IMG/VR virus record: IMGVR_UViG_3300021407_000008 | Reading direction: 5' to 3' (one strand) | Length of the DNA stretch: 64,000 nt | Source of the DNA: a virus | Taxonomy: Duplodnaviria > Heunggongvirae > Uroviricota > Caudoviricetes | Shown: positions 1 to 54,262 of the stretch, piece after piece | Position numbering within the stretch: the first letter of the stretch is position 1 | How the letters are laid out: each line of letters begins with the position of its first letter | The notes under the pieces: generated by a model | What the model was told of the DNA's origin: nothing | Databases searched by the model: none | What the model saw: the letters and a program-made list of their open reading frames with translations, nothing else | Translations under genes and position numbers: made by a program

Positions 1-24
1 GCAGGATCGGCAACAGACGGTTCC
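1..24 (-). CDS. Putative downstream exon (exon 3) of the major capsid gene; continues beyond the window start
   Basis: Follows the predicted 3' splice site ...AAACTG^ at plus position 25. Intron 1 ends the same way (...TTAACTG^ at position 983). Confidence 0.3.
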
Positions 25-226
25 CAGTTTCTTCGCTTTGTTACGCGATTGCTCGCGGTTAGGTCGTTTCCGCCTAACTCTACATGTCGCCATGCAGGCC
101 GGACTATATCTTCTCCGTTGTCTAGAGTCTCGCGTGTAGTCTCTACGGACTCGCCGCTTTCGCGGATTGCCTCGGTATTGTCCACTTGGGATGTCCACCG
201 ATATAGCGAGATTTTATAATCGCAAG
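25..226 (-). mobile_element. Group I intron 2 (3' portion, P7-P9) in the major capsid gene; 5' splice site probably lies inside the 3' end of ORF 227..970
   Basis: The minus strand carries the R element GTAGAGACTACA (plus about 139-150) and the S element GAAGATATAGTCCGG (plus 100-115), matching the consensus R CAGAGACTA and S AAGATATAGTC. P9-like hairpins follow (GTTAGGCGGAAACGACCTAAC and CGCGAGCAATCGCG). A terminal G sits at position 25. Confidence 0.55.
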
Positions 227-982
227 TCATGCTGCTTTCACGATTAGCTGATAGTTACGTTGCTCTGGGATTTCTGTAGCTCCAAGAGAAACGCTAAATA
301 CAGCGTCTTGTCCGACAACATAGGTTCCGTAGCCGGTTTTGGTGCCGGATGGGAAGGCTGCGAAAGTTGATGCAGTGGTAGTCTCAATGAAACGAGCACC
401 CGCAACATCAATTACTCGATAGCCCTGTACGCCGCGCATCAATTCCTCGCTGCCTTCTTTGTGGTATTTCAAAATGTCAATAACGCCACCGGCGGTATTA
501 TCATTTAGTAAATCAAAGGCGGCAAAGGGGTGAATGATCCCGGCGAACAACCCATCCGTCTGCGGTCTAACGTCTGCGCCACGAAGGCTCATAACGGCCT
601 GACGTGTCAACGAAGCGCTAAGGAATTCGTTGTCGGTACAGGAAATTACGATGGTGGAATCGGCGGTAGCCTCAGCTTCAAACTCGGTACGGGCTAGGGT
701 GTTTGCTGTTAGAGCAGCACGGTAGCCCATCTCGGCAGCGGTATTTTCGACGATAGGATCAATTGCGGTTTCAACGAGAATGTCAGAGAACGAAGCGAAG
801 TCAAAATATTGGTTGACAGCGACGTTTCTGATAGAAGTCGTTGGGTTGATACCAGTTCCAACGGTACCTTCGGTACCGGGAGTGGTATTAGCCGCAAATA
901 GATCGTAACCGTACAACTGAATAACGCGACCGTTACGGTCTGGAAGCTTACGACGGCTGGTTACGGCCACGAACGGGAGATT
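227..982 (-). CDS. Major capsid protein, internal exon (HK97-fold-like). The exon begins at position 982 directly after the intron's terminal G. The frame stays open to the stop at 227, which probably lies inside intron 2.
   Basis: 247-aa ORF with an HK97-family-like ...IIHPFAAFDLL... motif. It is too short for a complete major capsid protein. It is flanked by group I intron cores. An in-frame stop lies 5 codons upstream of the GTG, consistent with an intron 3' end. Confidence 0.5.
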   Translation of the reverse strand, partial: NLPFVAVTSRRKLPDRNGRVIQLYGYDLFAANTTPGTEGTVGTGINPTTSIRNVAVNQYFDFASFSDILVETAIDPIVENTAAEMGYRAALTANTLARTEFEAEATADSTIVISCTDNEFLSASLTRQAVMSLRGADVRPQTDGLFAGIIHPFAAFDLLNDNTAGGVIDILKYHKEGSEELMRGVQGYRVIDVAGARFIETTTASTFAAFPSGTKTGYGTYVVGQDAVFSVSLGATEIPEQRNYQLIVKAA

Positions 983-1581
983 CAGTTAATCCCAACGGTT
1001 TCCCGATGGGCTGGACTATATCTTCCAAGACTTCTAATCTCGGCCAAGCTCTTAGTCTCTGAGGACTCGCCAAATCGTTCCTTCTCTGCCACGATAGCTA
1101 AATCTTCTTCGGTATATCGCCTCGCCTCGTTACCGCCTTTCGTATATTTCATACGATTGACGATAAACCTGCGAAGGATCGCCGCTTCTGCTATCTTGCG
1201 ACCTATTAGATTCTTTTCTACTAGGTCAAGGAGTTTGAGCATGTCTTCGTGGTGATGAACTACTACTTGGAAACATCCATTGGAGTTTTCGCGGATATGG
1301 TTTCTTATTCCGTTCTCGTCTTGAATGTTTACCACGTACCAGATTAAAGCTGGATCGCTATTACTGAATCCAATCTCTGATCTGAGTTCAAATTTGCCAT
1401 TTTTTCTTGGATTTCTCCAAAGACTAAAATGGCCCTCACCACTATACAAACCGCCCAACATAATTCGGATTGCCTGCTGATTGTCTAATTCCACAGATTT
1501 TCCCTTTTTAGGACTGTAGACTCTAAAGATGTTCCAGCATACCGCTTGGTTTATATTAAGGCCAATTCCTGTTCGGTTCAA
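982..1581 (-). CDS. LAGLIDADG homing endonuclease (intron-encoded; C-terminus overlaps the intron P7-P9 core)
   Basis: Motif ...IMLGGLYSGEGHFSL... matches LAGLIDADG. TTG start. The stop TGA overlaps the intron's terminal G. Confidence 0.7.
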   Translation of the reverse strand: MNRTGIGLNINQAVCWNIFRVYSPKKGKSVELDNQQAIRIMLGGLYSGEGHFSLWRNPRKNGKFELRSEIGFSNSDPALIWYVVNIQDENGIRNHIRENSNGCFQVVVHHHEDMLKLLDLVEKNLIGRKIAEAAILRRFIVNRMKYTKGGNEARRYTEEDLAIVAEKERFGESSETKSLAEIRSLGRYSPAHRETVGIN

Positions 1582-1700
1582 GCCTTAAGATTCTCGACTG
1601 CGACCCGCAAAACGTGGGTCAAGAATCAATCTACGACCGGGTCAATTAATCGTAGTAAATGCTAGCTAAATGCGTTAGTCCTGCTGTAGTCGTTAAAACT
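983..1700 (-). mobile_element. Group I intron 1 in the major capsid gene, carrying a LAGLIDADG homing endonuclease ORF (5' boundary uncertain, somewhere in 1582..1917)
   Basis: Minus strand has R TCAGAGACTAAG (plus about 1041-1052), S GAAGATATAGTCCAGCC (plus 1008-1024), then a P9-like GNRA hairpin and a terminal G at 983. There is a 336-nt ORF-free region 5' of the homing endonuclease gene. The segment is homologous to the intron 2 core. Confidence 0.55.
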
Positions 1701-1917
1701 GAAGCTGGCTGATACGACATTTAGTTCACCTATTGCTGATGAGATGACAAGCTCCTATAGCCGCGCTATCTTGTGTTGCGGGATCGCCGCTCAAAGTAAG
1801 ATTGGCCAATGTGCTTGCACTAACACTCCCAACGGGCTATTGCTTCATATACTGGGCAATTTTGGTTTGGTCGGCCAAAATGCCTAATAAACTAGGCAAC
1901 CTATCCGTGTTCTGGAG

Positions 1918-3084
1918 TTACCGACTGGCAGCAGAACCGCGCTTCAACGAGGACGCAATACGCGCCCGCATTTCGTGAAGTGGCAGGTTTTGCCATCCAG
2001 TGACATCGACCCCTCCCTCGGGTTCAGGCGCAGGAGGCCGCTGACCAGAGCGGTCTGAGAGCATGACGGGTGGAGGCGGTGCTGGCGGTGCGGGAGGCAC
2101 CGGAACTGGTGTAGGAACTGGCGCGACTACAACTGGCGCTGGCGCTGGAGCAGGCGTACTCACAATAGGAACGGTTGTACTCGTAACGGGTACAGGTTCC
2201 GGCTGTTTGGTAGTGAACTTCGTGCCTTGCTCCGATAAAGTCTCAAAAGCGTATTCCAAGTTATTCTTTGTGGTCTGCATTGGTTCATCGTGAATCTTGC
2301 CGCAACGCTTGCAATTAAATCCGCCAACGGTTACGGGCCTAGAACATCCAGCCAAGAAAGAATAAATGGCATTGCCGCTTTGTGGGGTACAGTCAAAATC
2401 TTCTAAGTGGTCTGCGATGAATTCGGCTTCGGCTCTTTGGGCAGCTTCTTTTTGGCCAATAAGTTGTGTTTCATAGACTGTTCTGGCCACTGCGTCTGGC
2501 TTCGTGCCCGTAGACGCTTCGTAAACTTGCCGCCACGCTTCGTATGGGTTGGTTTTAAAGAGTTCGTTGATTTGGGCAACTTCGGTGTCATTTAATGTAC
2601 GTGGCTGAAAAGCTAGCGCTTCTGGTGCTTTGGAATTGTCTGGCTTAGCTTTAGCCTTTTCTTTCAGTTGACGGATACGCAAGGTAGCGTTCTTTTGGGC
2701 CTCTACTAACTTATCAATAACCCCTTGCTGGCTATCTGCCTTAAAAACTTGTGGTCCAGTCCCATCCCCAAGGTCAACCGTAGCCGTAAACTCTTTAGGC
2801 GGCTCCGGTGTAGCGTTAGGAGCGGCTACAGGAGCAGGCGCAGGGGTTGGGGTGGGTTCGGGAGCGGGAACAGGTGGAACGACCGCTGGCGGGGCTGTAA
2901 TAGGCGCGGGCGCTAGTTCTGGTGGCGCTGGCGGCATGAAGTCGTCCGATAACTGCATAGCGCGGGAAATTGGCGGTTTACCTTGTTTCGCCTCAACGGA
3001 TGGCGTGCCGTACAAGGTATCCAAAACTGGATCAGTTTGCAGAATGCTAGGAACTGCTGGGGGTGCTTCGGAAGTTGTTGGCAT
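1918..3084 (-). CDS. Pro/Ala-rich protein with a central coiled-coil-like region (possible scaffolding or head-associated protein)
   Basis: 388-aa ORF with PAPAPEP low-complexity tracts. It lies between the putative portal/protease genes and the capsid gene. Confidence 0.4.
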   Translation of the reverse strand: MPTTSEAPPAVPSILQTDPVLDTLYGTPSVEAKQGKPPISRAMQLSDDFMPPAPPELAPAPITAPPAVVPPVPAPEPTPTPAPAPVAAPNATPEPPKEFTATVDLGDGTGPQVFKADSQQGVIDKLVEAQKNATLRIRQLKEKAKAKPDNSKAPEALAFQPRTLNDTEVAQINELFKTNPYEAWRQVYEASTGTKPDAVARTVYETQLIGQKEAAQRAEAEFIADHLEDFDCTPQSGNAIYSFLAGCSRPVTVGGFNCKRCGKIHDEPMQTTKNNLEYAFETLSEQGTKFTTKQPEPVPVTSTTVPIVSTPAPAPAPVVVAPVPTPVPVPPAPPAPPPPVMLSDRSGQRPPAPEPEGGVDVTGWQNLPLHEMRARIASSLKRGSAASR

Positions 3085-46619: not shown

Positions 46620-46702
46620 TGGTGCCGCTGGGGAGATTTGAACTCCCATGCCCGAAGGCGCTGCATTCTAAATGCAGTATGTATGCGTTCCATCACAGCG
46701 GC
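46620..46702 (-). tRNA. tRNA-Leu(TAG), class II
   Basis: 7-bp acceptor GCCGCTG/CAGCGGC. Anticodon loop TTTAGAA. Long variable arm, T-loop TTCAAAT, CCA encoded. Confidence 0.55.
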
Positions 46703-46704
46703 AT

Positions 46705-46787
46705 TGGTGCCAATGGAGAGACTTGCACTCTCACGCCTTGCGGCAACGGGGCTTAAATCCGTCGCGTATTCATTCCGCCACATTGGC
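46705..46787 (-). tRNA. tRNA-Leu(TAA), class II
   Basis: Acceptor GCCAATG/CATTGGC. Anticodon loop TTTAAGC. GNRA variable arm. CCA encoded. Confidence 0.55.
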
Positions 46788-46793
46788 AAAACT

Positions 46794-46884
46794 TGGTGGG
46801 TGCGGATCGAATTGAACGACCGAGGCTCACATGGAAGCCACTGGTTTACAGCCAGTCCGAGATTCCCAACATCTCAACGCACCC
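46794..46884 (-). tRNA. tRNA-Tyr(GTA), class II
   Basis: Acceptor GGGTGCG/CGCACCC. Anticodon loop CTGTAAA. Long variable hairpin. CCA encoded. Confidence 0.5.
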
Positions 46885-46889
46885 AAAAA

Positions 46890-46978
46890 TGGCAGAGGGT
46901 GGAGCATCGAAGCCCTAGCCCATCCCTGAGCTACCCACGGGTTCAAACCGCGTCGCCAGCCACTCTAGCGGCACCCTC
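46890..46978 (-). tRNA. Class II tRNA, possibly Ser(TGA); fold partly unresolved
   Basis: Acceptor AGAGGGT/ACCCTCT plus CCA. Candidate anticodon loop TTTGAAC. T-arm is ambiguous. Confidence 0.35.
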
Positions 46979-46979
46979 T

Positions 46980-47070
46980 GTGGCGGAGAGAGCGTGTGCT
47001 GACCACGCGTGCCCCATTTCTGGAAGCTCATCTTTAGCAAAGATGCGGTTTTACCGTTCACCCATCTCTC
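46980..47070 (-). tRNA. tRNA-Ser(GCT), class II
   Basis: Acceptor GGAGAGA/TCTCTCC. Anticodon loop TTGCTAA. CCA encoded. Confidence 0.5.
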
Positions 47071-47100
47071 CGTTTTAAAATTGTCAAAGACCTTAAACTT

Positions 47101-47185
47101 TGGTAGGCCAGAACGGACTTGAACCGTTACGCCTCGCGGCAGCGCATTTTGAGTGCGCCGTGTCTGCCATTCCAACCACTGGCCT
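47101..47185 (-). tRNA. tRNA-Leu(CAA), class II
   Basis: Acceptor AGGCCAG/CTGGCCT. Anticodon loop CTCAAAA. GNRA variable arm. T-arm ACGG-TTCAAGT-CCGT. Confidence 0.55.
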
Positions 47186-47271
47186 AAATTTTTACAGGGA
47201 TAAATAATACGAGCGCAGCGCGTATAGGCTGCTACTGAGTCGCAATGAGAGTGATAGAGTCATTGAAGTTT

Positions 47272-47347
47272 TGGGAGCAAGCCTTGGAGTCGAACCAAGT
47301 ATCCTTGCGTTATGAGCGCAAGATGAATTCCGTTTCACCCTCTTGCT
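47272..47347 (-). tRNA. tRNA-Met(CAT) (or Ile2/fMet)
   Basis: T-arm CTTGG-TTCGACT-CCAAG. Anticodon loop CTCATAA. CCA encoded. Confidence 0.5.
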
Positions 47348-47354
47348 TTGATGA

Positions 47355-47543
47355 TTAGAGCACGGGCACTGAAGTTGTGTCAAGTTTTTTAGCAATAAAA
47401 CCTCTCTTGGCTACTAAATATTGTTGCAGTAATTCTCTATAGTGAACTTGGCTTCTGGCGGTTCCGTACTTTTTCTTGCAACCAAGAATATAGCGACGAT
47501 AGGCTAACATTACATGTTCTCGGTTTGGGTGTGGATGGCTCAT
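47355..47543 (-). CDS. Small basic protein
   Basis: 62-aa ORF between tRNA genes. Confidence 0.3.
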   Translation of the reverse strand: MSHPHPNREHVMLAYRRYILGCKKKYGTARSQVHYRELLQQYLVAKRGFIAKKLDTTSVPVL

Positions 47544-47708
47544 TAGTATTTGGCGGTTGGCGGCTTATTCCACGCTCTTGTGGGCGGTACCGCTGCCCGA
47601 ATTACCGGCTGCAACTAGTGGTCGATCTACCGGTAGGGTCATCCCGTTTTGTTCCCTTTAACGACCCATGCCACTATCGGTGAAACCCGCCGCCAAGAAG
47701 ATTAGATT

Positions 47709-47886
47709 ACTCTGGCCACTCTCGCGGTGCAAGTTCTATGTTGGATTGTTCTAGCCATTGGGCATATGGTAACGGTTCTTTTACGGTGCGACAATAACGC
47801 TTGTAGCGTCCAATGGCAATACGTTCTCGCAGAACTACCTTGCCTAGCTTCTTGCGCCATTCTTGCTGAATTGGACGTGCTCTCAT
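47709..47886 (-). CDS. Small basic protein (about 59 aa)
   Basis: Manual translation gives MRARPIQQEWRKKLGKVVLRERIAIGRYKRYCRTVKEP... Confidence 0.25.
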
Positions 47887-47907
47887 AAAGTTAAACGGGA
47901 TAGCTTT

Positions 47908-47975
47908 CTGGCATACGCGGAATCGAACCGCGAACTCGGGTATCTCCGAATGTTGCCATTAACACTATGCGCCCT
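47908..47975 (-). pseudogene. tRNA-like element, possibly a degenerate tRNA
   Basis: Canonical T-arm CGCGG-TTCGATT-CCGCG, but the acceptor is imperfect and the anticodon loop has 6 nt. Confidence 0.3.
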
Positions 47976-48014
47976 ACTCGCTATCCCTATCGCGATTCTA
48001 TAGCATCGCGAATA

Positions 48015-48088
48015 CTGGTCCGGGTGGACGGAATTAAACCGTCATCTTCTGATCCCAAATCAGAGGCTCGATCTTCCAGCTACACCCG
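48015..48088 (-). tRNA. tRNA-Pro(GGG)
   Basis: Acceptor CCGGGTG/CACCCGG. Anticodon loop TTTGGGA. T-arm GACGG-TTTAATT-CCGTC. CCA encoded. Confidence 0.5.
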
Positions 48089-48193
48089 GAAACTTTTCTA
48101 ACGGAAACGTCGCGGGCCGAATCCGCGCTTTTGTAAATCCAACTTCATGGCCAGCAAGCATACCGCGTCCGGTTTCTCGTTGTCCGTTAGTAT

Positions 48194-48271
48194 TGGTGAG
48201 CAGTCTCCGAGTCGAACGGAATTCTGGTCGGCTTCAGCGACCCGCTAAATGACCCCACTAGCTCACTGCTC
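48194..48271 (-). tRNA. tRNA-Phe(GAA)
   Basis: Acceptor GAGCAGT/ACTGCTC. Anticodon loop CTGAAGC. T-loop TTCGACT. CCA encoded. Confidence 0.55.
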
Positions 48272-48353
48272 AAATTTGGTGGACCTGGACGGTTATCCTC
48301 CGTCTGCCTCCGCATTGCAAGTGCGGCGCTCTCGTAAGTGAGCTACAGGCCCA

Positions 48354-48433
48354 TGGGGTGGACGGTCGAAGTTGCATCGACAAAAGCACGGTTCCACAGA
48401 CCGGCCCGACATTCTGATAGTCGGCACGTCCAC
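48354..48433 (-). tRNA. tRNA-His(GTG)
   Basis: Acceptor GTGGACG/CGTCCAC with discriminator C. Anticodon loop CTGTGGA. CCA encoded. Confidence 0.45.
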
Positions 48434-48436
48434 AAC

Positions 48437-48508
48437 TGGAGCCGACTGTGCGTGATGATCGCACTCCGCAATGGGTACAAGCCGCTGCGCCCTCCCGAGG
48501 GAGTCGGC
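48437..48508 (-). pseudogene. tRNA-like element with no resolvable anticodon arm
   Basis: Perfect acceptor GCCGACT/AGTCGGC plus CCA. T-arm GTGCG-ATCATCA-CGCAC. The middle region does not fold canonically. Confidence 0.3.
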
Positions 48509-48513
48509 AAAAC

Positions 48514-48588
48514 TGGAGCCGCGAGAATGAATCCAACATTCGTAGGTTGCTTACCGAGCAACTGAACTAAGCACTGTTCTATCGCGGC
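48514..48588 (-). tRNA. tRNA-Thr(GGT)
   Basis: Acceptor GCCGCGA/TCGCGGC. D-stem GAAC/GTTC. Anticodon loop TCGGTAA. CCA encoded. Confidence 0.55.
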
Positions 48589-48590
48589 GG

Positions 48591-48662
48591 AGCCGGTACG
48601 GCGAATTGAGCGCCGATAACGAGTTTACGAATCTCGCATTCTTCCACTTGAATTATACCGGC
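48591..48662 (-). tRNA. tRNA-Thr(CGT) (no CCA encoded)
   Basis: Acceptor GCCGGTA/TACCGGC. D-stem ATTC/GAAT. Anticodon loop TTCGTAA. Confidence 0.45.
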
Positions 48663-48669
48663 CAAAAAC

Positions 48670-48744
48670 TGGAGAGCCGTGAGTGAATTCAACACTCGTA
48701 TAAGGTTTTGCAGACCTCAGCCTAAAGCACTCGGCCAACGGCTC
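48670..48744 (-). tRNA. tRNA-Cys(GCA)
   Basis: Acceptor GAGCCGT/ACGGCTC. Anticodon loop CTGCAAA. CCA encoded. Confidence 0.5.
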
Positions 48745-48748
48745 AATA

Positions 48749-48823
48749 TGGAGCGGTCGGCGGGAATTGCACCCGCGACGTTCTGTCTGGCAGACAGACA
48801 TTCTCGCTGCTGAATTACGACCG
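48749..48823 (-). tRNA. tRNA-Gly(GCC)
   Basis: Acceptor GCGGTCG/CGACCGC. D-stem ATTC/GAAT. Anticodon loop CTGCCAG. CCA encoded. Confidence 0.55.
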
Positions 48824-48993
48824 CAATTCTTCCTGCGCTTGTTTGCGTGTTGCGCCCTCCTTAATTCTGCGCTGAATATATATCTCGCGCATATATTTCA
48901 TTGTTTGCGCATTGTCTATGGAGCGAACATCCGAATCTGCCTCGGAACCAAGAGAGTGGAAATCTCTGATGCTGCTAATTACACCATGCTCGC

Positions 48994-49338
48994 TCATTCG
49001 CAACAAACTCCTTCCCTGTTAGTCGCCGTGCATTCCAAGCAATATTCCACGGCATGTTTTATGCACGGATAACCTTTCCAACCCTCGCGAGCCATATATT
49101 TATCCCAATGGCTTGCTACCCAATAACGCGGGCGAGACAATGAACCACAACGGTCATCCCAGCATTCCTTGCAACGCGCAGAACCAGCACCTTGCTTTGT
49201 TTCCTGGCCGCAATCGATACAGTAAGTGGCGGGAGTGGACGGTAATGATCCGCCTTCGCGAGATTTGGAGGCTCGCCGCTCACCTTTTGCATCTTCACTC
49301 CCGAATACTAACTTTCTTGCGAATTCAAGATACTTAAA
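48994..49338 (-). CDS. Cys-rich zinc-finger small protein
   Basis: CIDCGQETKQGAGSARCKEC...CLECT. Confidence 0.35.
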   Translation of the reverse strand, partial: FKYLEFARKLVFGSEDAKGERRASKSREGGSLPSTPATYCIDCGQETKQGAGSARCKECWDDRCGSLSRPRYWVASHWDKYMAREGWKGYPCIKHAVEYCLECTATNREGVCCE

Positions 49339-49357
49339 CATTGTTTTCCTTTCAAAA

Positions 49358-49434
49358 TGGCGCTCCGTGCGGGAGTCCAACCCGCTGTTTCCGTCGTGAC
49401 AGGACGGCGGCTATAAGCGTTCGCCCAACGGAGC
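49358..49434 (-). tRNA. tRNA-Asp(GTC)
   Basis: Acceptor GCTCCGT/ACGGAGC. Anticodon loop CTGTCAC. T-arm GCGGG-TTGGACT-CCCGC. CCA encoded. Confidence 0.5.
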
Positions 49435-49439
49435 AAACT

Positions 49440-49514
49440 TGGCGAGCGGTGGATGAATCCAACATCCGTTACTGCTTTCAGAGAGCAGCGCCTAAAGCAC
49501 TCGGCCAACCGCCC
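49440..49514 (-). tRNA. tRNA-Gln(CTG)
   Basis: Acceptor GGGCGGT/ACCGCTC (one G-U pair). Anticodon loop CTCTGAA. CCA encoded. Confidence 0.5.
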
Positions 49515-49520
49515 AAAAAC

Positions 49521-49594
49521 TGGAACCCGGTGGATGAGTTGAACATCCATTGCTTGAGTCAAAGTCAAGTGCCTCAGCCGTTCGGCCAACCGGG
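49521..49594 (-). tRNA. tRNA-Gln(TTG)
   Basis: Acceptor GCCCGGT/ACCGGGT. Anticodon loop CTTTGAC. T-loop TTCAACT. CCA encoded. Confidence 0.45.
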
Positions 49595-49777
49595 CTAAAC
49601 CTTCAACGGTATCGCACGCACACATCTCGCGCAGATTACCGAACTTGAATCTATATCCTTTTCTAGCTTGCGCCGCGCTTCGCATGCTTCTTCCACAAGG
49701 GCATAATGGTCGGTTCCCCTAGCACAGTAATCTATCGTGCCATTCAAAACAATCGCGCCAAATAATTCGTGCTTCAT
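49595..49777 (-). CDS. Small Cys-containing protein
   Basis: ORF from the internal start MKHELFGAIVLNG... Confidence 0.25.
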   Translation of the reverse strand: MKHELFGAIVLNGTIDYCARGTDHYALVEEACEARRKLEKDIDSSSVICARCVRAIPLKV

Positions 49778-49784
49778 AAATCCT

Positions 49785-49861
49785 TGGTGGCGGCAGCGAG
49801 AATTGAACTCGCATTCTGTCTGTGAAAGAGACATGTCCTAAATCAATTAGACGATACCGCC
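49785..49861 (-). tRNA. tRNA-Glu(TTC)
   Basis: Acceptor GGCGGTA/TGCCGCC. Anticodon loop CTTTCAC. T-arm GCGAG-TTCAATT-CTCGC. CCA encoded. Confidence 0.5.
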
Positions 49862-50067
49862 CTTAGTTCTGCCATTCTTTTGTCGGATGCAACCTTACTC
49901 CATCCATAGCCGTCCCATATTTGCTTTGGTCTATTTGTGGCTCGGTTTTCGTAATGTTTGCGAGCTTTTTCTTCTGCCACGAAATCACGCGGTATTCCGT
50001 GTCGCGGCGATGATGAAACTAGTCTGTTTCCCATTGCTTGCCTCCTAAAAACGTTTAAGCCCCGCAT
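49843..50067 (-). CDS. Small basic protein
   Basis: 74-aa ORF, partly overlapping the tRNA-Glu 5' end. Confidence 0.25.
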   Translation of the reverse strand: MRGLNVFRRQAMGNRLVSSSPRHGIPRDFVAEEKARKHYENRATNRPKQIWDGYGWSKVASDKRMAELRAVSSN

Positions 50068-50070
50068 TGT

Positions 50071-50098
50071 TTTTCGGGGCTTAGTTGAACTACGTTAA
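50071..50098 (-). terminator. Rho-independent terminator (minus strand)
   Basis: AAGCCCCG-AAAAACAATG-CGGGGCTT followed by a T-run on the minus strand. Confidence 0.45.
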
Positions 50099-50260
50099 AT
50101 GTATTTCCCCGATTGTTTAAGGCGTACCAGTTTCTTGCCACGGTTGTGTGGCTGCTGGGAAACAATCGGCATGGAACAATGTATACATTTGGTTAATGGA
50201 GTAATACTAAACTAATGTTTTACAAAATGCAAGTTTGAATCCAAGCCGAGAGCCAGAGTT

Positions 50261-50593
50261 TCAGGGATATATCCTATTGAAGTACGCGTAGAACTCTTCT
50301 TGCGTCATACCTTTTACCTTATGGCAGTAGTTATAAACGCCCACCAGTTGATGATAACCAATGCCCAAGCCACTATAGGGGCGCACGGCTGGACGCCAGA
50401 AATGCTTGCACCGGAGTTGCTTCCACTTTTGTCCGCTTTCCAGTTCCTTGTCGCTTACGGTCATTTCTCCGTGCCCTCCTTGGGACTGATCTACGGCGCT
50501 GCCACAGTGATAAATAGTGCTATAGATGCTAAGTCGAATACGATTACGACCGGAACCCATAGCGCGTGACCACAGTTGTCCAACCAGTAGCAC
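50261..50593 (-). CDS. Hypothetical protein
   Basis: 110-aa ORF. Confidence 0.3.
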   Translation of the reverse strand: MLLVGQLWSRAMGSGRNRIRLSIYSTIYHCGSAVDQSQGGHGEMTVSDKELESGQKWKQLRCKHFWRPAVRPYSGLGIGYHQLVGVYNYCHKVKGMTQEEFYAYFNRIYP

Positions 50594-50680
50594 ACTCCAC
50601 CTGTCGCGAAGAAACTAAAAAGCCACAGAAGTTTTCCAAACCAACTCAACCAAGTTTTGATCACTGTCCATCCTTGGGCC

Positions 50681-50884
50681 TCAATGATTGCCAGCGTTTC
50701 TCAAGGCTCGTTCAAGATCGGCGATGGATACCGTTATGGAATGTCCTCGCCAGTCGAGAATCGCGAAATAGTTAAATATGCGGTGCGCCTTCACAATCAG
50801 GGCATCCGCCTCGTTAGGCAGTCCTTTGCGCTCGTTGCCGTCGATTTCGTAAGGGTCAAGACTAGTTTCTACAGTCTTAGCCAT
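50681..50884 (-). CDS. Hypothetical small protein
   Basis: 67-aa ORF adjacent to the next gene. Confidence 0.3.
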   Translation of the reverse strand: MAKTVETSLDPYEIDGNERKGLPNEADALIVKAHRIFNYFAILDWRGHSITVSIADLERALRNAGNH

Positions 50885-50885
50885 C

Positions 50886-52040
50886 TTACTTCTCCTTCTT
50901 CCCGGCGTCAGCCCCGAGAGCTTTCGCTGCTTCGATTTCCCATGCGTAGTGCTCCTTCATCCATCTCTCCTTGTTTCGGCCGCAGTTTTGGATGCTGGGA
51001 GCCGATTGGATGAGGACCTTGAGCTTGGCAATCTCGGCCTCTTTCTCCGCGACTCGGGCAGCGGCGTATCGGCGCATGGATTCCTGTGAGACTTTCATTA
51101 TCGTCAAACCGTCAAGCAGTCGGCAGGTTGTGCAGAATAACGATTCGTTGCCTCCAGTTAACTCAGCGGTCACAGCGGATAGCAACTGGCCTTCGGGAGT
51201 ACTGGCTAGTTCACGTTCTTGTCGAGTCAATACTGCATCTTGATTGTCTCGCTCGGGGAGCGATAAGCCGTCTCCAGCTTCGGAGGGATTGACCTCGGGA
51301 AAGGTAGACCGCTCCGGCTCCCCGAACTTTATTAGCGGCTCCGTACCCGCTGACCCGCCAGCATTCGTTTCCGCTCGCTTGTCGTCGAGAAGTTTAGTGC
51401 AGACTTCTACGCACTGGTCGCAGATGTAGGCACGCTCCTTAAAATCGTTGGGTGTAACAATAAGCCAGTTCACCTCGGCCTGTGTTTTGTGACAAAAGTA
51501 GCATATCGGCCCTCCGACTACTTGAGCGTGCTGATGCACGCCGATTTGACTTGATAAAGCCTTTCGTGATGACTGCGGACAGTTCCCACACTGTAAGCCC
51601 TGGAATGGCACACGCCGACCGCAACCGTGGATACAAAACGATTGTCCAGAGGAAGATAACTGCATGGGAGCGGACTGCCGTTCGCTGGGCAAGGCTGCAT
51701 CGGATTCTTTGCTAAATAGGTCGTCACAATTGGGACACTTACCTCGATTATTTTCCCATGATGCCAGATAGTTCTCGCGCTTACATTGAGGACATTTCTT
51801 GAATTCAGGTTCTACTCCGGGACAGTATCGCATCGGTCGGCCTCCAAATGTGTGCGCCGAATGAGGCGCTTCATAACAGCATCGCTCGCCCTGCGCTGGT
51901 GCTGGAAGTTGATGCGCAACCCATCCTCGACATGCAGACGTTTTCTGGTGCAAATATCCGCCCGCATAAGGGTGCCCTTGATCGAACGCTGTTTCACAAA
52001 GTCCGACCTCGCCCTGCGCTGGTGCTTCCTTCTCGCTCAC
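50886..52040 (-). CDS. Multi-zinc-ribbon protein with a ClpX-type C4 zinc finger
   Basis: ICYFCHKTQAEVNWLIVTPNDFKERAYICDQCVEVCTKLL resembles the ClpX N-terminal zinc finger. Several CPxC motifs. GTG start after AAGCG. Confidence 0.4.
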   Translation of the reverse strand: MSEKEAPAQGEVGLCETAFDQGHPYAGGYLHQKTSACRGWVAHQLPAPAQGERCCYEAPHSAHTFGGRPMRYCPGVEPEFKKCPQCKRENYLASWENNRGKCPNCDDLFSKESDAALPSERQSAPMQLSSSGQSFCIHGCGRRVPFQGLQCGNCPQSSRKALSSQIGVHQHAQVVGGPICYFCHKTQAEVNWLIVTPNDFKERAYICDQCVEVCTKLLDDKRAETNAGGSAGTEPLIKFGEPERSTFPEVNPSEAGDGLSLPERDNQDAVLTRQERELASTPEGQLLSAVTAELTGGNESLFCTTCRLLDGLTIMKVSQESMRRYAAARVAEKEAEIAKLKVLIQSAPSIQNCGRNKERWMKEHYAWEIEAAKALGADAGKKEK

Positions 52041-52044
52041 AGAA

Positions 52045-52419
52045 TTACCTCCCGTATGCGGACAATTGGACTACCCAACTGTTCGTGGATTTGTTCCATT
52101 CTTCCGCGACCCATCCAAGTGTGCCTTCTGCCCAGTCTGGGCCAATATCTACACACTTTCCAGCGGCTACCTTGCTCGGCGCAACCGCGTCACCGATCTT
52201 GGCCGTGGTACCTTCAAACGTACATATAGCTAGTACGTTGAGATTAGCTTCCTTGCTGGCCCGAAGCGGTTTGGTGTTCGGTACTGTGTCCGATTGGACA
52301 CCAATAAAGACGCCGAAAAACAGAGCGCCCATACACGTGAATATCCAAGTAAACGGCACCCACGAAGGTAGCTTTGGCTCAGTAGTTTCAGTTTCTATTG
52401 TGGCTTCCTTCTCGCTCAT
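52045..52419 (-). CDS. Membrane protein (paralogous MSEKEA N-terminus)
   Basis: Transmembrane segment FTWIFTCMGALFFGVFIGV. Shared start cassette. Confidence 0.4.
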   Translation of the reverse strand: MSEKEATIETETTEPKLPSWVPFTWIFTCMGALFFGVFIGVQSDTVPNTKPLRASKEANLNVLAICTFEGTTAKIGDAVAPSKVAAGKCVDIGPDWAEGTLGWVAEEWNKSTNSWVVQLSAYGR

Positions 52420-52703
52420 GGCTTCTTAGCTCCTAACTGAAAGTGGTTGCGAATTTCGGATGCCCGACAATGGACGGCCACATCACGTCCCAAATCATGT
52501 AGCCATTTGCCCTCTGGCCGCTGGAATATAGGTTCCCCACCTTCGCAATCCGCACAAAGCACTTTACAGCACTGCTCCGCGATCTCGCGGCCGAAGTCCG
52601 CCACGCGCTGATCCGCCCAGCCAACCTCTCCGCTTTGCTCTCGAAAGTGACCCGCTGCCTGCGCCAGTTTGGCCGGCGGTGCTTCCTTTCTGTCTCCGCT
52701 CAT
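52416..52703 (-). CDS. Cys-containing small protein (MSGDRKEA N-terminus)
   Basis: Shared start cassette. CCKVLCADCEGG. Confidence 0.35.
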   Translation of the reverse strand: MSGDRKEAPPAKLAQAAGHFREQSGEVGWADQRVADFGREIAEQCCKVLCADCEGGEPIFQRPEGKWLHDLGRDVAVHCRASEIRNHFQLGAKKP

Positions 52704-52886
52704 CGCTTCGGCTTCTCCAATCTGAAATGCTTAGGGCATAGATGGACGATTACCTTGTCAGGAACCTTCAGAATCGTTCCTTGTTGAGTTGTCAAAGCGC
52801 AGGATGTCAACTGAGCCGTTGCCTTACATTGTTGACCATCCCACGCACCGCATCTAAACCTTGGCTTCCTGTCTCCGCTCACAAGT
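52700..52886 (-). CDS. Small protein (VSGDRKPR N-terminus, GTG start)
   Basis: Shared start cassette GTGAGCGGAGACAGGAAG. Confidence 0.3.
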
Positions 52887-53115
52887 CCTCCGTCGCCTTC
52901 TTGGCTCCGAGAATCCGCTTCATCTCCGCCGCGATGCAACGCTTGGCAAGACCGTCAAATGGCCTGCCCAGAAACATCTCAACTGCCTCGACCGTAACAT
53001 GGATGGCACGCTCAATCGTTCCCTTTGGATGGATGATCATTGCGCCATTCTTGCAAAAGTGCTCGGCAATTGATCGGAACGGTGATTCCTCTTTCGTCTC
53101 AGCCCCCGCACTCAT
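52879..53115 (-). CDS. Small protein (MSAGAETKEE N-terminus)
   Basis: Shared AAGCG-ATGAG start context. Confidence 0.35.
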   Translation of the reverse strand: MSAGAETKEESPFRSIAEHFCKNGAMIIHPKGTIERAIHVTVEAVEMFLGRPFDGLAKRCIAAEMKRILGAKKATEDL

Positions 53116-53171
53116 CGCTTCTGTCCTCTCTGATTAAGAGATTATATAGCACGGGAAAAGATTCAAGAAAA

Positions 53172-53247
53172 TGGTGCCAGCACCGAGAATCCAACTCGGA
53201 TTTGCTCTTTAGGGGAGAGCCGTGTTCGTGCGTTACACTATGCCAGC
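53172..53247 (-). tRNA. Possible tRNA-Arg(CCT) (acceptor has two G-U pairs)
   Basis: T-arm CCGAG-TTGGATT-CTCGG plus CCA. Anticodon arm GCTCT-CCCCTAA-AGAGC. Confidence 0.35.
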
Positions 53248-53555
53248 AAAATCGGCCATCAGGAGAAACCGCAAACCTTCGCCAGCTACTTCGTCCTTCT
53301 GTGTTGGGTCACTCGAAACGATTAAGCTTAATCTATCCCAACCTTCTGCCCGCGCTTTCCACGGGATTAGGAGCGTTTCCTTCCAGACTTTTTGCCAACT
53401 TCGGTTGTTCCACTAGAACCATTACTGGACTGCATCTAACTTCGCAACCGCGACTCTAGATCGACTTTTCGGCTTCGGTCCAAGCGAACAGCCCAAGCAA
53501 GTCGTCCAACTTGTGCGTCAGTTTTTTCGTGGCCAAAATAAATATAGCATGAAAA

Positions 53556-53631
53556 TGGTAGGGCCATGAGGACTTGAACCCCAATCGCTCGTTCCGTAGA
53601 CGAGTGCCTTAATCCGGTTAGACGATGGCCC
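53556..53631 (-). tRNA. tRNA-Arg(ACG)
   Basis: Acceptor GGGCCAT/ATGGCCC. Anticodon loop CTACGGA. T-arm TGGGG-TTCAAGT-CCTCA. CCA encoded. Confidence 0.5.
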
Positions 53632-53634
53632 CGT

Positions 53635-53709
53635 TGGGACTCGCTGGCAGGCTCGAACTGCCGTTCCACGGGTAGAAGCCGTGATCCTTTCCTGTTGGAC
53701 GAAGCGAGC
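53635..53709 (-). tRNA. tRNA-Arg(TCT)
   Basis: Acceptor GCTCGCT/AGCGAGT. Anticodon loop CTTCTAC. T-arm GGCAG-TTCGAGC-CTGCC. CCA encoded. Confidence 0.5.
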
Positions 53710-53716
53710 ATAAAAT

Positions 53717-53792
53717 TGGTCGGGGCCAAGGGATTCCCACCCTTATCGGCTCGCTTAAAAGGCGAGGGTACTCAGTGTTGTACTAGACCCCG
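53717..53792 (-). tRNA. tRNA-Lys(TTT)
   Basis: D-stem GTAC/GTAC. Anticodon loop CTTTTAA. CCA encoded. Confidence 0.55.
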
Positions 53793-53793
53793 T

Positions 53794-53872
53794 TGGTGGG
53801 TGCGGCCCGAGTCGAACGGGCATGATCCAAATTAAGAGTTTGGAGCGCTTTCCATTACTCCGCCACGCACCC
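53794..53872 (-). tRNA. tRNA-Lys(CTT)
   Basis: Acceptor GGGTGCG/CGCACCC. Anticodon loop CTCTTAA. T-arm GCCCG-TTCGACT-CGGGC. CCA encoded. Confidence 0.45.
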
Positions 53873-53873
53873 A

Positions 53874-53947
53874 TGGTTCTCCGAGAAAGAGTCGAACTTT
53901 CGTAACGTGCTTATCAGACACGCGAACTACCGTTGTTCTATCGGAGA
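53874..53947 (-). tRNA. tRNA-Ile(GAT)
   Basis: Acceptor TCTCCGA/TCGGAGA. D-stem GAAC/GTTC. Anticodon loop CTGATAA. CCA encoded. Confidence 0.55.
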
Positions 53948-53953
53948 AAAATC

Positions 53954-54027
53954 TGGTACCGGATGATTGAGTCGAACAATCGTAAGTGGTGTGTAGGACC
54001 ACGGCTTTACCCTTAAGCTAATCCGGC
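53954..54027 (-). tRNA. tRNA-Val(TAC)
   Basis: D-stem GCTT/AAGC. Anticodon loop CCTACAC. T-arm GATTG-TTCGACT-CAATC. CCA encoded. Confidence 0.55.
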
Positions 54028-54029
54028 GC

Positions 54030-54104
54030 TGGTGGGCGATGGACGAATCGAACGTCCGACCAGAAGTTTATAAGACTTCCCATCTGCCACTGATGTAATC
54101 GCCC
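54030..54104 (-). tRNA. tRNA-Ile(TAT) (AUA-reading)
   Basis: Acceptor GGGCGAT/ATCGCCC. D-stem CATC/GATG. Anticodon loop CTTATAA. CCA encoded. Confidence 0.5.
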
Positions 54105-54111
54105 TAAAAAT

Positions 54112-54185
54112 TGGTCGCTCATTTCCGAGTCGAACGGAAGTAGGTGGGATATGAAGCCACTGCACTGCCCTTGTGCTAATGAGCG
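54112..54185 (-). tRNA. tRNA-Met(CAT) (second copy; possible initiator or Ile2)
   Basis: Acceptor CGCTCAT/ATGAGCG. D-stem GCAC/GTGC. Anticodon loop TTCATAT. CCA encoded. Confidence 0.45.
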
Positions 54186-54187
54186 GG

Positions 54188-54262
54188 CTGGCCGAGTAGG
54201 AATCGAACCTACGCATGGCGAAATTAACAGTTTCGTGCCTTACCAACTTGGCTACCGGCCAA
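54188..54262 (-). tRNA. tRNA-Asn(GTT) (no CCA encoded)
   Basis: Anticodon arm CGAAA-CTGTTAA-TTTCG. T-arm GTAGG-TTCGATT-CCTAC. Confidence 0.45.

Follow-up and report, generated by a model that had tools for sequence, protein, structure and literature searches.

The minus strand of positions 1-1720 of a 64,000-nucleotide (nt) stretch of tailed-phage DNA (Caudoviricetes; IMG/VR record IMGVR_UViG_3300021407_000008), the whole of which we call the window, carries the first four coding segments of a five-segment major capsid gene of the N4-gp56 type. The genome of the host phage measures about 103 kb. The coding segments are separated by full-size group I introns and, close to the 5' end of the gene, by an element of only 41 nt (the mini-intron) that is the main subject of this report (Table 1). 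All junctions were fixed by BLAST and by explicit splicing against a homologous locus (L001) in which the capsid gene is uninterrupted. A Shine-Dalgarno sequence (AGGTGA, 1731-1726) precedes the capsid start codon, and the gene runs past the start of the window. Its 3' part can be read from an independently assembled 103-kb ENA contig (L043) that is 100% identical to window positions 1-2000. On this contig the reading frame continues to ...HPRFRL, is interrupted by a third full-size intron and ends with IKAEASIS*. Since intron 3 lies beyond the window, the capsid gene has four intervening sequences in all. Their removal in silico affords a protein of 330 amino acids (aa), and a public protein collection contains exactly this predicted spliced protein (P0127) as an uninterrupted open reading frame (ORF) on a 1,376-nt contig.

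Table 1. Coding segments, intervening sequences and intron elements of the capsid locus. Positions refer to the window unless another contig is named.
Feature	Position	Strand	Length	Description
Exon 1	1720-1649	(-)		MSYQ...IYYD; ATG 1720; MSYQPASVLTTTAGLTHLASIYYD; residues 1-24 of intron-less homologues by alignment
Mini-intron	1648-1608	(-)	41 nt	TAATTGACCCGGTCGTAGATTGATTCTTGACCCACGTTTTG; not present in intron-less homologues
Mini-exon (exon 2)	1607-1581	(-)	27 nt	CGGGTCGCAGTCGAGAATCTTAAGGCT; RVAVENLKA, exactly residues 25-33 of homologues
Intron 1	1580-983	(-)	598 nt	Group I, with LAGLIDADG ORF; its removal restores ...LKA joined to NLPF...
Intron 1, P3	1549-1544/1049-1044	(-)		
Intron 1, P4	1539-1534/1480-1475	(-)		
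Homing-endonuclease ORF	1494-982	(-)	170 aa	Inside intron 1; most likely start GTG 1494; VELDNQQAI...
Intron 1, P6	from 1474, closing at 1075-1063	(-)		Closes around the ORF
Intron 1, R/P7	1062-1050	(-)		R-like element TCAGAGACTAAG at 1062-1051
Intron 1, P8	1043-1025	(-)		
Intron 1, S/P7'	1025-1013	(-)		S element GAAGATATAGTCC
Intron 1, P9	1010-991	(-)		Hairpin after the core
Exon 3	982-240	(-)		NLPFVAV...NYQLI plus GT of Val281
Intron 2	239-34	(-)	206 nt	Group I, without ORF
Intron 2, P3	211-206/133-128	(-)		
Intron 2, R	146-135	(-)		R-like element GTAGAGACTACA
Intron 2, S	113-101	(-)		S element GAAGATATAGTCC
Intron 2, P9	97-80	(-)		Hairpin after the core
Intron 2, P9.1	78-58	(-)		
Intron 2, P9.2	57-44	(-)		
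Exon 4 (start)	33-1	(-)		A AGA AAC TGG GAA CCG... = (V)RNWEPSVADP; runs past window start
Intron 3	L043 6552-6781, just outside window start		230 nt	Full-size group I; splits the capsid between RFRL and IKAE

The assignment to a capsid gene follows from the ORF at 970-227 (247 aa), which matches the major head protein family phrog_1357 (E 2.6e-15). Because this match covers only profile positions 55-293 of 356, the ORF lacks both ends of the protein; the initial annotation of the window had already judged it too short for a complete capsid protein. With the 247-aa ORF as query, a protein search found about 150 relatives, mostly 325-332 aa long. The closest of these, P0001 (330 aa, N4-gp56 family), is encoded by the uninterrupted gene of L001 and is 98% identical to the exon 3 ORF of the window. 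P0001 scores 74.6 bits against TIGR04387, above the cut-off of 60, which bears out the initial claim that the locus encodes the major capsid protein. At the DNA level, exon 3 aligns without gaps to positions 671-1414 of L001 with 90% identity.

Introns 1, 2 and 3 are ordinary group I introns of a single family, which are predicted to self-splice. The cores of introns 1 and 2 each contain R-like and S elements, share a locally alignable stretch of about 65 columns (GGCGAGTCC to GATATAGTCC.GCC) and are followed by P9 hairpins, as expected from the initial proposal of two homologous group I introns inside the window. Each full-size intron is preceded by a U that pairs with a G of the guide (U.G), and each ends in G. 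In intron 1, the P1 helix (P1b) pairs UUAAGGCU with the guide GGCCUUAA (1563-1556); the preceding base is U1581 and the terminal base G983. In intron 2, AAUCGU (245-240) pairs with the guide GCGAUU (223-218), and the corresponding bases are U240 and G34. An intron at the same site in a related locus (L019) differs from intron 2 by a compensatory change in P1 (UGAUCGU with GCGAUCA). For the family of the LAGLIDADG intron, RNAalifold analysis of the ORF-free intron parts of seven loci recovered P3, P4, P5 and P9, with compensatory changes in 16 of 40 pairs. P7 and P8 of intron 1 were seen by inspection, and P7 is invariant.

The Rfam group I intron model (RF00028, gathering score 50 bits) had been suggested as a check on these introns. 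It does match intron 2 at 298-80(-) over the full model length, in an alignment that spans P3-P9, with an E value of 5e-8 in a 2.4-kb search and 1.4e-6 in a search of the whole window, but the score of 39.5 bits lies below the gathering score. The match to intron 1 at 1355-992(-) is weak (16.8 bits) because the ORF interrupts the core. An Rfam scan of the whole window at gathering threshold reported tRNAs only, and the introns surfaced in a permissive scan. Intron 3 reaches exactly the gathering score (50.0 bits), and sister introns in the capsid genes of relatives score 53.6-68.3 bits.

Several boundaries differ from those first proposed. The exon that follows intron 1 does begin at 982, in phase, and the LAGLIDADG ORF does lie within intron 1 and read through its core, but the intron starts at 1580 and not near 1649. 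Its P1-P6 elements are located in 1588-1467, where they overlap the listed ORF, and not in the ORF-free 336 nt at 1582-1917 that had been reserved for them; this stretch consists of intergenic DNA, exon 1, the 41-nt mini-intron and the 27-nt mini-exon. The candidate exon 1 (MSYQPASVL...) was correctly identified, although it starts at ATG 1720 instead of 1730. Likewise, the predicted terminal ACTG is right for intron 1 (G983) and wrong for intron 2, which ends at G34 and not at G25. The 3' splice site of intron 2 thus falls between 34 and 33, not between 25 and 24, as judged from both the intron-less homologue and the same-site intron of L019. The core-less mini-intron and the third full-size intron just outside the window had not been recognised.

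The mini-intron has the layout TAATT GACCCG GTCGTAG ATT GATTCTTGAC CCACGTTTT G. Translation cannot simply read through this sequence, since TAA directly follows GAT (Asp24) in the window and 41 is not a multiple of 3. The guide GUCGUAG (1637-1631) pairs with CUACGAU (1655-1649), the last 7 nt of exon 1, to form a helix (P1a) with a U.G pair (U1649.G1637) exactly at the 5' junction. Immediately 5' of this segment, the guide GACCCG (1643-1638) pairs perfectly with CGGGUC, nt 1-6 of the mini-exon (P10a). Together the two segments form a contiguous 13-nt internal guide. The terminal base of the mini-intron is G1608. A P1 helix with U.G, a P10 helix on a contiguous guide and a terminal G are textbook features of group I introns. 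The mini-intron has all of them and appears to work through group I chemistry.

What follows the guide consists only of one strand of a further helix and a linker. The segment GAUUCUUGAC (1627-1618) pairs over 10 bp with GUCGAGAAUC, which comprises nt 10-19 of the mini-exon (1598-1589). We refer to this pairing as helix X. A linker of 10 nt separates its 5' strand from G1608. The remaining nt 20-27 of the mini-exon (1588-1581) form the exon strand of P1b, so that P1a, helix X and P1b stand as abutting hairpins directly upstream of P3 of intron 1. The mini-intron itself contains neither P3-P9 nor a P7 guanosine-binding site, and the permissive scan gave no RF00028 match centred on it. Without a core of its own, the mini-intron is not a self-contained member of the group I class. 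Two other views of the 41-mer were dropped: an alternative hairpin of GACCCAC with GCGGGUC across the 3' junction, because helix X is longer and covaries, and a direct repeat or "duplication scar", given the complementarity to the mini-exon and the covariation described below. Alternative initiation at the mini-exon was also rejected, since an in-frame ATG occurs in only one relative (L059) and exon 1 is under purifying selection.

Relatives of this arrangement were found by searches with the LAGLIDADG protein, by contig look-ups and by one metagenome pattern scan. Four diverged contigs from different samples (L046, L047, L048 and L059) have the same architecture, with endonucleases that are 63-67% identical to that of the window and a DNA identity of about 66%. 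Their mini-introns measure 50, 49, 53 and 46 nt, respectively. All five mini-introns are preceded by U, end in G and are followed by a 27-nt mini-exon and then directly by the LAGLIDADG intron, and no mini-intron has a length divisible by 3. In two further loci (L044 and L045) a full-size homologous LAGLIDADG intron with the same guide sits between D24 and R25, and the junction between A33 and N34 is uninterrupted. Six of the seven matches from the metagenome pattern scan were due to chance. A scan of IMG/VR with the guide pattern returned only chance matches, in RNA polymerase genes of giant viruses, and an IMG/VR search with the LAGLIDADG protein returned no match.

The exons that flank the mini-intron are clearly coding. 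Exon 1 of L046 differs from that of L047 by 15 synonymous and 0 non-synonymous codon changes, the mini-exons of the same two loci differ by 3 and 0, and across all five loci every difference in the mini-exon is synonymous except for A33P in L059. This pattern indicates that exon 1 and the mini-exon are under purifying selection in the mini-intron loci, and it follows that the mini-intron must be removed or skipped.

The guide pairings are maintained in the same set of loci. P1a is invariant, including U.G at the junction, and P1, P10 and the terminal G are either kept or covary in the five mini-introns and the two same-site full introns. Over six loci the P10a guide tracks the third base of the Arg25 codon, and all four Watson-Crick states occur (CGG/CCG, CGA/UCG, CGC/GCG and CGU/ACG). 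Helix X comprises 8-12 bp in the other four loci, in the same register. Double changes occur in 4 of its 10 pairs, one of which is found as four pair types, and in 3 of the 8 pairs of P1b, where the guide covaries with the exon in five loci. With one pair in P10a, the compensatory pairs number 8 in total. The proposed structure contains 31 pairs, and 96.8% of the cells in the alignment are paired; controls with slid registers gave 33-43%. The number of pairs changed on both sides fell from 8 to 0-1 in these controls, and none of 500 shuffles reached the observed pairing values. These counts are based on an alignment (A3) made because MAFFT had misregistered the 5' strand of helix X in an earlier version (A2). 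As a check that is independent of the registration of A3, unconstrained minimum free energy folds of the single sequences again gave P1a, helix X and P1b as abutting hairpins in each of the five loci (z -2.8 to -3.7). The 10-29-nt linker, by contrast with these helices, showed no conserved sequence or hairpin across the five loci.

How could an intron without a core be removed? The mini-intron contains everything that a group I substrate needs and nothing catalytic, which points to a neighbouring core as the catalyst. We tentatively propose that it is a core-less group I intron that is spliced with the help of such a core, likeliest that of intron 1 acting in cis, and we would put the chance that this is correct somewhat below even. 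One ribozyme would then serve two introns: a core-less element of 41-53 nt may be excised by the core 27 nt downstream, an idea that we hold with the same caution. Helix X and P1b lie between P1a and P3 of intron 1, a place that is taken by P2 and P2.1 in larger group I introns. This position suggests that P1a is tethered to the core of intron 1.

By this mechanism the core of intron 1 would act twice in cis, first on the mini-intron and then on its own intron. In the first step, the core would dock P1a and GTP would cleave the transcript after U1649. P10a would then bring G1608 and the mini-exon into the active site, where exon 1 would be joined to the mini-exon. This ligation would release the 41-mer and open helix X. 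Finally, the core would dock P1b, and intron 1 would be spliced in the normal way. Helix X and P1b would thus double as a makeshift P2 and P2.1. One may also speculate that the LAGLIDADG protein acts as a maturase. The mini-intron was always accompanied by the LAGLIDADG intron 27 nt downstream (5/5), and the two loci with a full-size intron at the mini-intron site have none downstream.

Several observations weigh against this proposal. The five mini-intron loci go back to one origin, so that their strict association with intron 1 represents one evolutionary event and not five. P1 of intron 1 is tethered far closer to P3 than P1a is; intron 1 might therefore splice first, which would leave the mini-intron without a core in cis. 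Furthermore, a P9.0-like pairing before the terminal G is not conserved in the mini-introns. The covariation counts come from an alignment (A3) of five sequences only, two of which are close relatives, and its registration was done manually to fit the proposed helices, with loops omitted. P0127, the exact match to the predicted spliced protein, could derive from an intron-free allele instead of a cDNA.

The same chemistry could be provided in trans by a free ribozyme, either intron 1 after its excision or one of introns 2 and 3 from the same transcript, with helix X serving only to pre-organise the substrate. P1, P10 and a terminal G are all that such a substrate needs, and three homologous cores are available from the same late transcript. 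Moreover, an engineered group I ribozyme provides a precedent in E. coli (PMC4094466), and P1 of intron 1 should out-compete P1a in cis. Against these points stands helix X, which abuts P1b with a linker of 0-2 nt in all five loci and looks like a tether to intron 1. In addition, the mini-intron was never found apart from intron 1, despite the many other introns of this family in relatives. An untethered P1 helix, moreover, docks only weakly. On balance we consider splicing in trans rather unlikely.

It is improbable that the mini-intron is self-sufficient or is processed with the help of a protein, either as a minimal catalytic unit together with its exons, in the manner reported for the 67-nt fungal PaSSU intron, as a guide splint for a nuclease and an RNA ligase, or as a substrate of the LAGLIDADG protein as maturase. 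P1a and P10a do hold both exon ends adjacent on one guide strand. Fungal introns of 56-81 nt share P1, P10 and a pairing between intron and 3' exon ("PM"), and one of them has been reported to self-splice in a long exon context (PMC3160393). The phage linkers (10-29 nt), however, are variable in sequence and length and contain no P7-like hairpin or other conserved element, and 41 nt leave no room for a guanosine-binding site.

Ribosomal bypassing as in gene 60 of phage T4 would solve the problem at the level of translation, with take-off at GAU (Asp24), 41 nt skipped and resumption at CGG. The locus does resemble that system in that an essential phage gene contains a short non-coding gap and has a homing endonuclease next to it. 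The take-off codon lies within a hairpin and, in the window, is directly followed by UAA. Measured against the defining features of bypassing (bioRxiv 10.1101/2022.08.31.505936), the resemblance breaks down. Take-off would occur at GAU in all five loci, but the codon before the resume site is UUG, GAG, CAG, AAG or AUG and never GAU or GAC. The codon after take-off reads UAA (window only), UAC, ACU, UAC and AGA, so that the stop is not conserved. Conserved instead are the pairing of the gap with both exon ends and a terminal G, neither of which is required for bypassing. We consider this explanation highly improbable. It is just as improbable that the mini-intron is an artefact of assembly or a decaying scar in a capsid gene that is no longer functional: homologous introns are repeats that can confuse assemblers and a frameshifting insert resembles a pseudogene, but the sequence is identical in the independent ENA assembly, a 103,216-nt JGI contig carries the same ORFs, four further diverged examples come from other samples, three helices are kept by compensatory changes and the flanking exons are under purifying selection.

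For the core-less intron that we propose, the probable ancestor is a full LAGLIDADG intron at this position, whose core was lost once a homologous core lay 27 nt downstream. This origin by deletion is suggested by L044 and L045, which keep a full intron at the site of the mini-intron. Near-identical capsid genes (P0140 and P0127) are without the whole unit that is present in the window. Furthermore, identity to L001 is 67-70% in 1581-1720 (exon 1 and mini-exon) and about 90% in 240-982, with an abrupt change at the intron 1 site that looks like a recombination or co-conversion boundary. Both observations suggest joint movement, by homing and co-conversion, of a unit that extends from exon 1 through the mini-intron and the mini-exon to intron 1.

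The endonuclease that would drive this mobility is encoded within intron 1. GTG 1494 is most likely its start codon, because relatives start with ATG GAC AAT CAG (MDNQQAI) and the identical 170-aa form has been called elsewhere (P0142); the alternative start at ATG 1461 corresponds to a 159-aa form, which was also called (P0121). An exact-protein look-up of the 199-aa ORF as listed found no match, because the TTG start given to it in the ORF list is artefactual. The ORF 1581-982 matches Pfam LAGLIDADG_3 (PF14528) with 24.3 bits (gathering score 22.5) and is weakly similar to I-CreI-derived (E 0.04) and I-PnoMI chains. The single motif (LGGLYSGEG) in 159-170 aa indicates an endonuclease of the single-motif type, presumably a homodimer. 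The ORF overlaps P4', P6, P7, P3', P8, P7' and P9 of intron 1, and its stop codon TGA (984-982) spans the 3' splice site.

Introns of this family occur well beyond the locus described here. Group I introns have a hotspot in the capsid family, with at least 10 different insertion sites in close relatives, at about residues 24, 33, 191, 204, 276, 281, 301, 320, 322 and 327 (loci L002, L019, L026, L034, L036, L038 and L049; proteins P0002, P0013, P0015, P0050-55, P0076 and P0109). One intron family can occupy different sites: intron 2 of the window is 81% identical to an intron of L002 that lies between SCAY and NFKY and scores 55.8 bits with RF00028. Several introns of the capsid family are translated in frame by gene callers. 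The start of P0028 (VAVENLK...), which was considered as a sign of another intron at the mini-intron site, proved to be a gene-caller artefact. Within the core of intron 2, window positions 167-214 share 87.5% identity over 48 nt with Erwinia phages phiEa1H and phiEa100. The matching segment is annotated there under "DNA polymerase A, part A" and is probably a related intron core that splits the polymerase gene. About a dozen metagenome-assembled genomes (contigs L071, L080, L086, L088, L092, L098, L099, L102, L103, L110 and L111) also contain the P4'-P6 motif of intron 1 (GACAATCAGCAGGCAATC) along with the R and S elements, so that the capsid LAGLIDADG intron has core relatives in cellular genomes. 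Most of these genomes belong to Patescibacteria, or candidate phyla radiation (Saccharibacteria, Doudnabacteria and Uhrbacteria), and one to Bathyarchaeota.

Among the neighbouring features, a 388-aa ORF with long low-complexity stretches rich in Pro, Ala and Val lies directly upstream of the capsid gene (1918-3084, minus strand). It has no match in Pfam or PHROG, and by its position may encode a scaffolding or decoration protein. An SU10-type portal gene is located further upstream on L043. The window also contains 21 tRNA genes in two clusters (46623-54261, minus strand), which is a large number for a phage genome of this size (about 103 kb); 18 of them were found in the default scan at gathering threshold, and the permissive scan gave scores above the gathering score of 29 bits for all 21. 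A sub-threshold match to YrlA (RF02553) at 34425-34534 on the minus strand (35.6 bits, E 4e-4; gathering score 69) could be due to chance or could reflect an RNA that resembles a tRNA or a Y RNA.

Structural genes of phages are well known to harbour group I introns with homing endonucleases, and this is the ordinary part of the locus. In orf142 of Staphylococcus phage Twort, a 23-nt exon lies between two IA2 introns (PMC10136302), and Cluster J mycobacteriophage has a capsid intron (PMC3706429). Such systems share with the window a phage gene that contains several homologous group I introns of the self-splicing type, some of them with homing-endonuclease genes, and a very short exon between two intervening sequences. 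The short exon of Twort is flanked by two full-size ribozymes, whereas the upstream element described here is core-less and measures 41-53 nt. The endonuclease described here is of the LAGLIDADG type, a family with a wide host range that includes organelles, bacteria and archaea and is listed separately from other families (PMC3984707).

Small degenerate group I introns of 56-81 nt have been described in fungal small-subunit (SSU) rDNA, for example in Phialophora (PaSSU, 67 nt), Porpidia and Arthonia; their proposed origin is a full intron that was shortened by deletion or unequal crossover (PMC3160393). As in these introns, most of the core is gone from the phage element, which contains P1, P10 and a PM-like helix X. 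The fungal introns, however, interrupt rRNA, keep a putative P7, end in U in the case of PaSSU and have no adjacent full intron. The phage mini-introns interrupt a protein-coding gene, measure 41-53 nt, end in G and always lie 27 nt upstream of a full homologous ribozyme; inspection of the linkers in the five loci found no P7 remnant of the PaSSU type. Homology to the fungal introns is unlikely, since both host gene and kingdom differ. The 50-nt bypass cassette of T4 gene 60 with its endonuclease MobA is also a short untranslatable insert in an essential phage gene, and in both cases insert and endonuclease were probably inherited as one mobile unit. In the capsid gene, guide pairing and a terminal G take the place of the matched codons and the conserved stop or "hungry" codon.

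The proposed reaction also has an engineered counterpart. In E. coli, an engineered Tetrahymena ribozyme acts in trans to excise an intervening sequence that has no core (PMC4094466); as in our proposal, one group I core is responsible for removal of an intron without a core. In split or trans group I systems, the core can use a guide or P1 on a separate strand (PMC2709566). The guide of these engineered systems resides on the ribozyme. In the capsid gene it resides in the excised element, and the proposed core acts in cis from inside another intron. The abbreviated group II introns of Euglena plastids (group III introns and twintrons) are thought to rely on parts of other introns. They embody the same concept of a reduced and dependent intron lineage, but belong to group II, reside in a eukaryotic organelle and have no homology to the phage element. 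Our literature searches found no core-less, covariation-supported group I-type element in a protein-coding gene that is tied to an adjacent full intron. The nearest known things are the fungal small rDNA introns and the engineered spliceozymes (PMC4094466).

What makes the mini-intron unusual is that nothing remains of it but P1, P10, a terminal G and a single tethering helix, and that these elements are kept by compensatory evolution across diverged phages. If our interpretation is correct, it would be the smallest group I-type intervening sequence known, and intron 1 would contain the first natural group I core to serve a separate core-less intron. For engineered spliceozymes, splicing of the mini-intron by the neighbouring core would be a precedent from nature. 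The proposed path of group II introns, which leads from self-splicing to dependence on catalytic RNA encoded elsewhere, would also gain a counterpart among group I introns. The locus raises the question as to whether one ribozyme core can act on two substrates in cis. A practical consequence is that essential phage genes with such elements resemble frameshifted fragments, as illustrated by the 247-aa "capsid" that gene callers extracted from this gene. Similar elements have probably been overlooked in metagenomes. For the phage, the proposed dependence would mean that loss of intron 1 kills the capsid gene. The mini-intron would then be an addiction device for the mobile element, which suggests a route by which a selfish intron may become impossible to lose.

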